Shown here: positions 1 through 2,350 of the stretch, piece by piece
Numbering within the stretch: position 1 is the stretch's first letter
Layout of the letters: each line of letters starts with the position of its first letter
Source: Escherichia coli
Lineage (GTDB): Bacteria > Pseudomonadota > Gammaproteobacteria > Enterobacterales > Enterobacteriaceae
Length of the DNA: 2,355 bases
Strand: one strand, 5' to 3'
Assembly: GCF_003334785.1 (NCBI RefSeq)
Contig: NZ_QOWV01000057.1
Translations under genes and position numbers: made by a program
The notes under the pieces: model-generated
The model's input: the letters and a program-made list of their open reading frames with translations, nothing else
Databases searched by the model: none
What the model was told of the DNA's origin: nothing

Positions 1-19
1 CGTTATATCCGAAGCCCCC

Positions 20-412
20 GTGGTAAAAAAACGTCCCCGGCGGCCCAACTTCCCTTATGAGTTTAAAATCGCCTTAGTGGAGCAGTCACTGCAGCCCGGA
101 GCCTGTGTGGCGCAGATCGCCCGGGAAAACGGAATCAACGATAACCTGCTCTTCAACTGGCGCCATCAATACCGGAAAGGTGGCCTGCTGCCTTCCGGAA
201 AAAATATGCCGGCACTGCTTCCCGTGACGTTAACGCCGGAGCCGGATAATAAAATCCCGGCCCCCGCACAGGAACCAGAGCAGATAAATACACCGTCCGA
301 CAGTCTGTGTTGTGAGCTGGTTCTGCCGGCCGGAACTCTCAGGCTTAAAGGTAAACTGACGCCGGCGTTATTACAGACACTTATCCGCGAAATAAAAGGG
401 AGCAGCCACTGA
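20..412 (+). CDS. tnpA: IS66-family accessory protein TnpA (orf1), predicted helix-turn-helix DNA-binding protein
   Basis: 130-aa ORF from GTG at 20 to TGA at 410-412. The N-terminus (EFKIALVEQSLQPGACVAQIARENGINDNLLFNWRHQYRKG) fits the HTH pattern of IS66 orf1 and related transposase N-terminal domains. A Pro/Glu-rich linker follows, then a C-terminal segment (ELVLPAGTLRLKGKLTPALLQTLIREI) resembling the conserved orf1 C-terminus. The reading frame is open all the way to position 2, so the true start could lie upstream of the window, and no clear Shine-Dalgarno precedes the GTG. Confidence 0.85.
   Translation: MVKKRPRRPNFPYEFKIALVEQSLQPGACVAQIARENGINDNLLFNWRHQYRKGGLLPSGKNMPALLPVTLTPEPDNKIPAPAQEPEQINTPSDSLCCELVLPAGTLRLKGKLTPALLQTLIREIKGSSH
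396..401 (+). promoter_or_regulatory. Shine-Dalgarno-like AGGGAG for tnpB, embedded in the 3' end of tnpA
   Basis: AGGGAG at 396-401, 10 nt upstream of the tnpB ATG at 412-414. Confidence 0.5.
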
Positions 413-759
413 TGATATCTCTCCCTGCAGGTTCGCGTATCTGGCTGGTTGCAGGTATCACCGATATGCGAAATGGCTTTAACGGCCTGGCATCAAAAGT
501 TCAGAACGTCCTGAAGGATGACCCGTTCTCCGGACACCTGTTCATCTTCCGCGGACGCCGGGGTGACCAGATAAAAGTGTTGTGGGCTGACAGTGACGGA
601 CTGTGCCTCTTCACCAAACGCCTGGAGCGGGGCCGCTTCGTCTGGCCAGTCACCCGTGACGGCAAGGTGCACCTTACTCCGGCTCAGTTATCCATGCTTC
701 TTGAAGGTATCAACTGGAAGCACCCGAAACGAACGGAACGCGCTGGAATCCGCATATAA
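412..759 (+). CDS. tnpB: IS66-family accessory protein TnpB (orf2); unrelated to the IS200/IS605 TnpB nuclease
   Basis: 115-aa ORF, ATG 412-414 to TAA 757-759. The sequence (RIWLVAGITDMRNGFNGLASKVQNVL...PFSGHLFIFRGRRGDQIKVLWADSDGLCLFTKRLERGRFVWP) is characteristic of IS66 orf2 as I recall it from enterobacterial IS66 elements. The start overlaps the tnpA stop (ATGA), as is typical for the family. Confidence 0.92.
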   Translation: MISLPAGSRIWLVAGITDMRNGFNGLASKVQNVLKDDPFSGHLFIFRGRRGDQIKVLWADSDGLCLFTKRLERGRFVWPVTRDGKVHLTPAQLSMLLEGINWKHPKRTERAGIRI

Positions 760-778: not shown

Positions 779-2350
779 ATGGACACCTCACTTGCTCATG
801 AGAACGCCCGCCTGCGGGCACTGTTGCAGACGCAACAGGACACCATCCGCCAGATGGCTGAATACAACCGCCTGCTCTCACAGCGGGTGGCGGCTTATGC
901 TTCCGAAATCAACCGGCTGAAGGCGCTGGTTGCGAAACTGCAACGTATGCAGTTCGGTAAAAGCTCAGAAAAACTTCGTGCAAAAACCGAACGGCAGATA
1001 CAGGAAGCACAGGAGCGAATCAGCGCACTTCAGGAAGAAATGGCGGAAACGCTGGGTGAGCAATATGACCCGGTACTGCCATCCGCCCTGCGCCAGTCTT
1101 CAGCCCGTAAACCGTTACCGGCCTCACTTCCCCGTGAAACCCGGGTTATCCGGCCGGAAGAGGAATGCTGTCCTGCCTGTGGTGGTGAACTCAGTTCTCT
1201 GGGATGTGATGTGTCAGAGCAACTGGAGCTTATCAGCAGCGCCTTTAAGGTTATCGAAACACAACGTCCGAAACAGGCCTGTTGCCGGTGCGACCATATC
1301 GTGCAGGCACCAGTACCTTCAAAACCCATTGCACGCAGTTATGCCGGAGCGGGGCTTCTGGCCCATGTTGTCACCGGGAAATATGCAGACCATCTGCCGT
1401 TATACCGCCAGTCAGAAATATACCGTCGTCAGGGAGTGGAGCTGAGCCGTGCCACACTGGGGCGCTGGACAGGTGCTGTTGCTGAACTGCTGGAGCCGCT
1501 GTATGACGTCCTGCGCCAGTATGTGCTGATGCCCGGTAAAGTCCATGCTGATGATATCCCCGTCCCGGTCCAGGAGCCGGGCAGCGGTAAAACCCGGACA
1601 GCCCGGCTGTGGGTCTACGTCCGTGATGACCGTAACGCCGGTTCACAGATGCCCCCGGCGGTCTGGTTCGCGTACAGTCCGGACCGGAAAGGTATCCATC
1701 CACAAAATCACCTGGCCGGTTACAGCGGTGTGCTTCAGGCCGATGCTTACGGTGGTTACCGGGCGTTATACGAATCCGGCAGAATAACGGAAGCCGCGTG
1801 TATGGCTCATGCCCGGAGAAAAATCCACGATGTGCATGCAAGAGCGCCCACCTACATCACCACGGAAGCCCTGCAGCGTATCGGTGAACTGTATGCCATC
1901 GAGGCAGAGGTCCGGGGCTGTTCAGCAGAACAGCGTCTGGCGGCAAGAAAAGCCAGAGCCGCGCCACTGATGCAGTCACTGTATGACTGGATACAGCAAC
2001 AGATGAAAACACTGTCGCGTCACTCAGATACGGCAAAAGCGTTCGCATACCTGCTGAAACAGTGGGATGCACTGAACGTGTACTGCAGTAATGGCTGGGT
2101 GGAAATCGACAACAACATCGCAGAGAACGCCTTACGGGGAGTGGCCGTAGGCCGGAAAAACTGGATGTTCGCGGGTTCCGACAGCGGTGGTGAACATGCG
2201 GCGGTGTTGTACTCGCTGATCGGCACATGCCGTCTGAACAATGTGGAGCCAGAAAAGTGGCTGCGTTACGTCATTGAACATATCCAGGACTGGCCGGCAA
2301 ACCGGGTACGCGATCTGTTGCCCTGGAAAGTTGATCTGAGCTCTCAGTAA
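779..2350 (+). CDS. tnpC: IS66-family DDE transposase TnpC (orf3)
   Basis: 523-aa ORF, ATG 779 to TAA 2348-2350. It has an N-terminal heptad-rich coiled-coil region with the IS66-typical FGKSSEKL motif (nt 953-976). A CxxC...CxxC zinc-finger-like pair follows (CPAC at 1169-1180, CRC at 1283-1291). Candidate catalytic residues are HADD (D at 1550-1555), QADAYGGY (D at 1742-1744) and NNIAEN (E at 2123-2125). Length and domain order match IS66 transposases. Confidence 0.95.

Follow-up and report, generated by a model that had tools for sequence, protein, structure and literature searches.

The window, by which is meant the whole 2,355-nucleotide stretch of DNA analysed here, carries three consecutive open reading frames on one strand, corresponding to the 3′ part of tnpA followed by tnpB and tnpC (Table 1). 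The order tnpA-tnpB-tnpC and the presence of TnpB_IS66 and DDE_Tnp_IS66 domains place them in the IS66 family of insertion sequences, and homologous loci carry PF05717 and PF03050. A megablast search of complete Escherichia coli genomes matched 80% or more of the window in 1,503 of them, at many places with 100% identity, and these places are annotated as tnpA, tnpB and 'IS66-like element ISCro1 family transposase'. The 5′ letters of the window are cgttatatccgaagcccccGTGgtAAAAAAAcg…, and it is 100% identical to positions 1501-3855 of the locus used as reference (L001).

Table 1. Features of the window and of the part of the element immediately 5′ to it. Positions are those of the window unless stated otherwise.
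Feature	Position	Strand	Details
Inverted repeat, 11 bp	L001 1232-1261; IS nt 51-80; 240-269 nt upstream of window position 1		ATA(A/G)TGTCCAT-N8-10-ATGGACA(C/T)TAT
RefSeq tnpA start, ATG	266 nt before window position 1	+	MSIIF…, 225 aa, WP_001339397.1; PGAP
Probable tnpA start, ATG	L001 1265; IS nt 84; 236 nt before window position 1	+	MKHRTW…, 215 aa
tnpA, 3′ part	2-412	+	IS66-family accessory protein; open reading frame 20(2)-412; 136 sense codons and stop; cut by the 5′ edge of the window
GTG codon (GTG-20)	20-22	+	Internal Val96 of the 225-aa TnpA (Val86 of the 215-aa form); linker, pLDDT <50
A7 run	25-31	+	Lys98-Lys99, start of basic KKRPRRP stretch; register A_AAA_AAA
HTH_Tnp_1 (PF01527) DNA-binding domain of TnpA	32-196	+	Pfam residues 102-159, E = 3.7e-14; NF047595 residues 102-219
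tnpB	412-759	+	IS66 accessory protein, 115 aa; ATG overlaps tnpA TGA; strong Shine-Dalgarno sequence
tnpC	779-2350	+	IS66/ISCro1-family DDE transposase, 523 aa

Limits and organization of the element

To define the ends, three independent insertions, one of them in a plasmid and the others in chromosomes, were aligned. All three share a span that runs from GTAACCGGCTC… through …GAGTCGCTTAC, and each is flanked by a different 8-bp target duplication (TTTTGAGG at L001, GGTTGAAT at L002 and ACAGGGAG at L003). The combination of common ends with individual duplications fixes the boundaries of the element at L001 1182-3880, a length of 2,699 bp. The terminal inverted repeats are imperfect and of the GTAA type, with ends GTAACCGGCTC… and GTAAGCGACTC…, and both lie outside the window. 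A generic inverted-repeat finder did not detect these imperfect repeats, and the ends were taken from the alignment of the three insertions. The window corresponds to nt 320-2674 of this ISCro1-like element, contains neither of its ends and starts inside tnpA. The element and its long TnpA are already known and are annotated in RefSeq (WP_001339397.1).

The stop codon of tnpA overlaps the start codon of tnpB in the sequence TGATG at window 410-414, and the strong Shine-Dalgarno sequence of tnpB, AAGGGAG, is located within the 3′ end of tnpA, an arrangement that fits translational coupling of the two genes. Anti-Shine-Dalgarno duplex energies were -7.6 kcal/mol for tnpB and -7.8 kcal/mol for tnpC. 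A scan of the 5′ region of the element for promoters and terminators found none. In several O-serogroup STEC genomes, an otherwise identical copy of the element is split in two by an IS3/IS600-family insertion.

The N-terminal part of TnpA and its start codon

The original prediction placed a putative tnpA start at GTG-20, in a frame open from position 2 and with no convincing Shine-Dalgarno sequence before it, and allowed for a true start further upstream, outside the window. These features are all present. Frame 2 is free of stops from position 2 and reads VISEAP, then the GTG codon, then VKK, and pairing of the 20 nt upstream of the GTG with the 16S anti-Shine-Dalgarno sequence gave a duplex of -0.2 kcal/mol. 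Six stop-free codons before the GTG are at chance level, (61/64)^6 ~0.75. In intact copies, which are identical to the window and flanked by target duplications, there is no in-frame stop directly 5′ of position 2, and the open frame extends back to L001 1199, 107 codons 5′ of GTG-20. Two candidate start codons, both ATG, lie in this upstream part, and GTG-20 is 255 nt (85 codons) downstream of the one that begins MKHRTW and 285 nt (95 codons) downstream of the one chosen in RefSeq. Homologues of TnpA with 57-70% identity, from Pantoea, Erwinia, Klebsiella, Serratia, Edwardsiella, Yersinia, Kosakonia and Symbiopectobacterium, are 204-229 aa long and cover 93-100% of the query. All of them carry the 85-residue region that precedes GTG-20, none begins at the equivalent of GTG-20, and the expectation of an upstream start is borne out.

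The protein translated from the upstream start scored 295.8 bits against the 190-position profile NF038385 'IS66_access_TnpA' (curated cut-off 150 bits), with residues 13-206 aligned to profile positions 1-189, and it matches this long type of IS66 TnpA over the full length. The product of GTG-20, in contrast, aligned to profile positions 80-189 only, with 186.9 bits. Conservation was followed across eight elements from several enterobacterial genera and, at the codon level, in an alignment of nine elements. Many residues of the 85-residue extension are invariant or nearly so, and a conserved motif, RTWLLEALRLHFEE…GRRLGIPKTTVCDLFVRFRKAGLSWPLP, is evident. The dN/dS ratios (Nei-Gojobori, nine pairs) were 0.09-0.39 for the 85 extension codons, compared to 0.09-0.35 for the remainder of the gene. 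The extension is translated, conserved and under purifying selection.

An AlphaFold2 model computed from the TnpA alignment has helices at residues 13-77 (pLDDT 84-91) and a second helix-turn-helix (HTH) at residues 108-147 (pLDDT 84-90 by 10-residue blocks), followed by a C-terminal β-hairpin and helix. The pLDDT values fall below 50 for residues 1-12 and for the linker, residues 78-99. The HTH_Tnp_1 region is the part held in common with the canonical short IS66 TnpA. In the N-terminal extension, sub-threshold Pfam matches (E ≤ 0.1) to HTH_23 were obtained for 11 of 16 members and to Sigma70_r4 for 13 of 16, and a PDB profile search with the N-terminal domain returned insignificant matches only. 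The model and the matches to Pfam support, though they do not prove, an HTH-like fold for this domain, and by inference the extra domain may bind DNA.

It had also been predicted that products of IS66 orf1 typically have about 10 residues before an EFK motif. This holds for the canonical short family, where position 1 of the 113-position profile NF047595 aligns to residue 102, seven residues before E109-F110-K111. As the TnpAs of the short family begin at about this place, GTG-20 looks plausible as a start. The TnpA of this element belongs to the long subfamily, NF038385, having acquired an extra N-terminal domain.

If GTG-20 were nevertheless the true start, or a second, internal one, a 130-aa TnpA similar to the canonical short protein would result. 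This product scores above both cut-offs (186.9 bits against 150 for NF038385 and 91.5 against 74 for NF047595), its N terminus lies near the start of the short-family proteins, and gene callers annotate it in complete genomes where the upstream reading frame is intact; in the CP006048 copies, a G-to-A change even turns the codon into ATG. However, the codon is situated in the variable linker and lacks a Shine-Dalgarno sequence, and its equivalents in the nine-element alignment are GTG in three elements, GCA in two and ATC, GTT, GTC and GTA in one each. With a codon other than a start codon in six of the nine elements and no Shine-Dalgarno sequence, GTG-20 is ruled out as a conserved initiation site and is an internal valine codon. 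The purifying selection on the 85 codons upstream likewise argues against initiation here, which is regarded as highly improbable. A different explanation would be that the copy at the source locus is itself truncated at or near window position 1, its tnpA being a remnant. Only 19 nt separate the edge of the window from the GTG, and 5′-truncated copies do occur: on the Shigella flexneri plasmid pT32S1 (L009 801-1176), an ISCro1-like copy is cut by IS4 at ~IS nt 355 (~window 36) and adjoins an IS4 transposase gene. Against such a truncation, the six codons 5′ of the GTG are the same as in intact copies, all eight inspected places at which the 130-aa protein is called have the complete 5′ end of the element, and the edges of the window, at -19 and +5 of the called genes, resemble trimming based on gene calls. 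A remnant at the source locus is accordingly considered improbable, and the preferred reading remains that of a window cut from within an intact tnpA.

The eight inspected places also have an open upstream frame, and the 130-aa database entries are mis-starts, that is, annotation choices rather than truncations. The G-to-A change at window 20 (IS nt 339), which gives V96M, was observed in five copies in one E. coli genome (loci L019-L023, CP006048.1) and in the database proteins P0044 and P0115. Gene callers take the resulting ATG as the start despite the intact upstream reading frame.

Between the two upstream ATG codons, the comparison of elements favors the downstream one. The codon directly before KHRTW is ATG or GTG in all eight elements, whereas the ATG or GTG of MSIIF fails in four of them: in one, it is followed by an in-frame TAG, and in three, it is out of frame, with a T-run of 6 or 7 instead of 5. 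The NF038385 profile begins at residue 13 of the 225-aa TnpA. The anti-Shine-Dalgarno duplex is -1.7 kcal/mol for the RefSeq start; that for the MKHRTW start is weak (-3.0 kcal/mol), a point against this choice. From the presence of a start codon before KHRTW in every element, the failure of the MSIIF start in half of them, the beginning of the profile at residue 13 and the low pLDDT of residues 1-12, we infer that translation most likely starts at the MKHRTW ATG, to give a protein of 215 aa. Initiation at the RefSeq ATG (MSIIFNGHYRM…, 225 aa) is the choice of PGAP and yields the longest reading frame, and MSIIFNGHYR is kept as amino acids in several distant homologues. This apparent conservation, however, coincides with a near-invariant palindrome in the DNA, and in view of the elements in which the frame is broken, the RefSeq start appears unlikely. 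The comparison suggests that the RefSeq call is 10 codons too long. In the searchable literature on IS66 tnpA/tnpB/tnpC, ISCro1, IS679 and the HTH of the IS66 family, no experimental mapping of the TnpA N terminus was found; IS679 itself was reportedly characterised by Han et al. in 2001.

The palindrome is the inverted repeat listed in Table 1. It stops 3 nt short of the probable tnpA start, and the RefSeq ATG lies within its 5′ arm. It is near-invariant in the eight elements, although their TnpAs are only ~60% identical. One position of the stem covaries, being A-T in two elements and G-C in four, with an A·C mismatch in the E. coli element, and the loop is a T-run of 5-7 that varies in length. 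As RNA, the repeat is predicted to form a hairpin of -8.6 to -14.8 kcal/mol. The repeat may act either as a TnpA operator or, in hairpin form, in the control of translation.

Related copies also differ in the organization of tnpA. In other E. coli IS66 elements (L008, NZ_AP022327.1), tnpA is 84-97% identical at the nucleotide level only from ~window 95 on (window 95-412), and the divergent 5′ halves still encode a long TnpA, of 216 aa. This pattern in the sequences suggests that tnpA genes of mosaic or recombinant origin exist among the IS66 elements of enterobacteria. In the database proteins P0024, P0033, P0048, P0068 and P0080, the N-terminal domain is duplicated in tandem or short repeats flank internal in-frame deletions, and these rearrangements may be assembly artefacts or real.

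The A7 run and its length variants

A run of seven A was noted originally in codons 3-4, counted from GTG-20, with no evidence that it promotes slippage. The run is indeed present at 25-31, but it begins one base earlier than those codons, at the third base of codon 2 (GTA), before it continues as AAA AAA. The absence of a demonstrated role still stands: there is no downstream structure, the heptamer is not conserved and the -1 frame is short. One such run is observed in the window, against 0.63 expected per 2,355 nt, and 71 of 200 shuffled sequences contain at least one. Among the nine aligned elements, A7 is found in the reference (L001) and in L007 (92% nucleotide identity) only, and the other seven have AGA AAG, CGC AAA, TCC AGA, CAT AAG, ACA GAG and so on at the same site. 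The 79 nt downstream of the run fold worse than shuffled sequences (z = +1.88), and after the slippery AAA AAA, the -1 frame has nine sense codons before its stop at window 58-60.

These observations bear on whether A7 could be a site of programmed slippage, by -1 frameshifting or at transcription, that produces a truncated regulator consisting of the N-terminal domain only, as in IS1 or IS3. In favor of this, the run matches the X_XXY_YYZ register exactly, falls in the linker that separates two DNA-binding domains, and is kept in the relative with 92% nucleotide identity. Of the hallmarks of a -1 frameshift site, however, only the in-register heptamer is found, and a stimulatory structure, conservation and a meaningful -1 reading frame are lacking. 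For transcriptional slippage to be efficient in E. coli, a run of ~9 or more is needed, a length that A7 does not reach. Because the run is absent from the seven more distant elements, the downstream sequence folds poorly and the -1 frame stops early, programmed slippage at A7 is very unlikely, and the occurrence of one run in the window is what chance would give. A narrower version, confined to the E. coli ISCro1/IS679 lineage, would have low-level slippage at A7 produce a ~100-aa protein with the HTH-like domain that acts as a repressor at the upstream palindrome. IS1 InsA and IS3 OrfA are the analogues proposed for such a protein, and this idea is given an almost negligible chance. In the preferred reading, A7 is an ordinary part of the coding sequence.

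Variation in the length of the run was surveyed with 86-88-nt probes containing A7, A6 or A8 against E. coli genomes, which covered 1,857 records and 4,385 places. An exact A7 copy was present in 1,623 records, A6 in 10 and A8 in 4. A check for indels at the run had been proposed; length variants occur but are rare (14 of 1,857 records), and the two A6 copies that were inspected resemble assembly errors. All three variant copies inspected, two A6 and one A8, are labelled 'frameshifted' by PGAP. Within 1.1 kb, the A6 copy of strain B-2207 (L004, NZ_CP117959.1) has further indels, which affect three CCTGG (Dcm) sites, a C5 run and a CC, and in the A6 copy of MFDS1016424, a second run is also shortened, from A6 to A5. 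In two assemblies, the A6 copy is found on both chromosome and plasmid. Indels at homopolymers and Dcm sites are a pattern typical of long-read consensus error, which suggests that both inspected A6 copies are uncorrected long-read assembly errors rather than biology. The A8 copy of 2013C-3277 shows otherwise no difference, and it could be real or an error. In the assemblies of L004 and L006 (NZ_CP106924.1), the 'frameshifted' pseudogenes of tnpA and tnpB result from several indels of a single base, located at homopolymers and CCTGG within 1.1 kb of the element.

Interpretation and comparison with known elements

Taken together, the window is read as a slice that begins inside tnpA, with the start of the gene upstream, a two-domain TnpA of ~215 aa, and a GTG-20 codon and an A7 run that are both ordinary; we put the probability of this joint reading at about 0.9. 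The ATG at which translation most likely begins lies 255 nt 5′ of GTG-20, and on the predicted architecture, the TnpA of ~215 aa consists of a subfamily-specific helical, HTH-like domain, a disordered basic linker, HTH_Tnp_1 and a C-terminal β-hairpin and helix. GTG-20 is Val96 in the linker and A7 codes for Lys98-Lys99, with no special function for either.

The main value of the analysis lies in annotation hygiene, as a 130-aa call from the GTG, or from ATG in some copies, loses a conserved N-terminal domain. No new mechanism is implied; an effect of the window edge, combined with a plausible-looking internal GTG, is involved. The additions are small, namely a probable start 10 codons downstream of that in RefSeq, the recognition of the 130-aa entries as mis-starts and the rarity of A6 and A8 in complete genomes.

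The A7 run resembles the -1 frameshift sites of the IS3 and IS1 type (A_AAA_AAG or A_AAA_AAA) in being an in-register A_AAA_AAA inside an IS gene and between domains, but it differs from them in the absence of a downstream stimulatory structure, of an extended -1 reading frame and of conservation of the heptamer. The canonical short IS66 TnpA (NF047595, ISRel24 type, ~113 aa) is matched over its whole profile by TnpA residues 102-219 (89.5 bits). It begins near GTG-20 and is without the N-terminal domain of ~65 residues and the linker of ~20 residues found here. In contrast, with the long TnpA of NF038385 and WP_001339397.1, the full 190-position profile is matched once the upstream part is included. 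Compared to the RefSeq protein WP_001339397.1, there is no difference in sequence, and the start is placed 10 codons downstream (215 aa versus 225 aa). The element as a whole corresponds to IS66 elements of the ISCro1/IS679 type, with DNA that is 100% identical throughout the window, the same tnpA-tnpB-tnpC operon, GTAA-type ends and 8-bp duplications.
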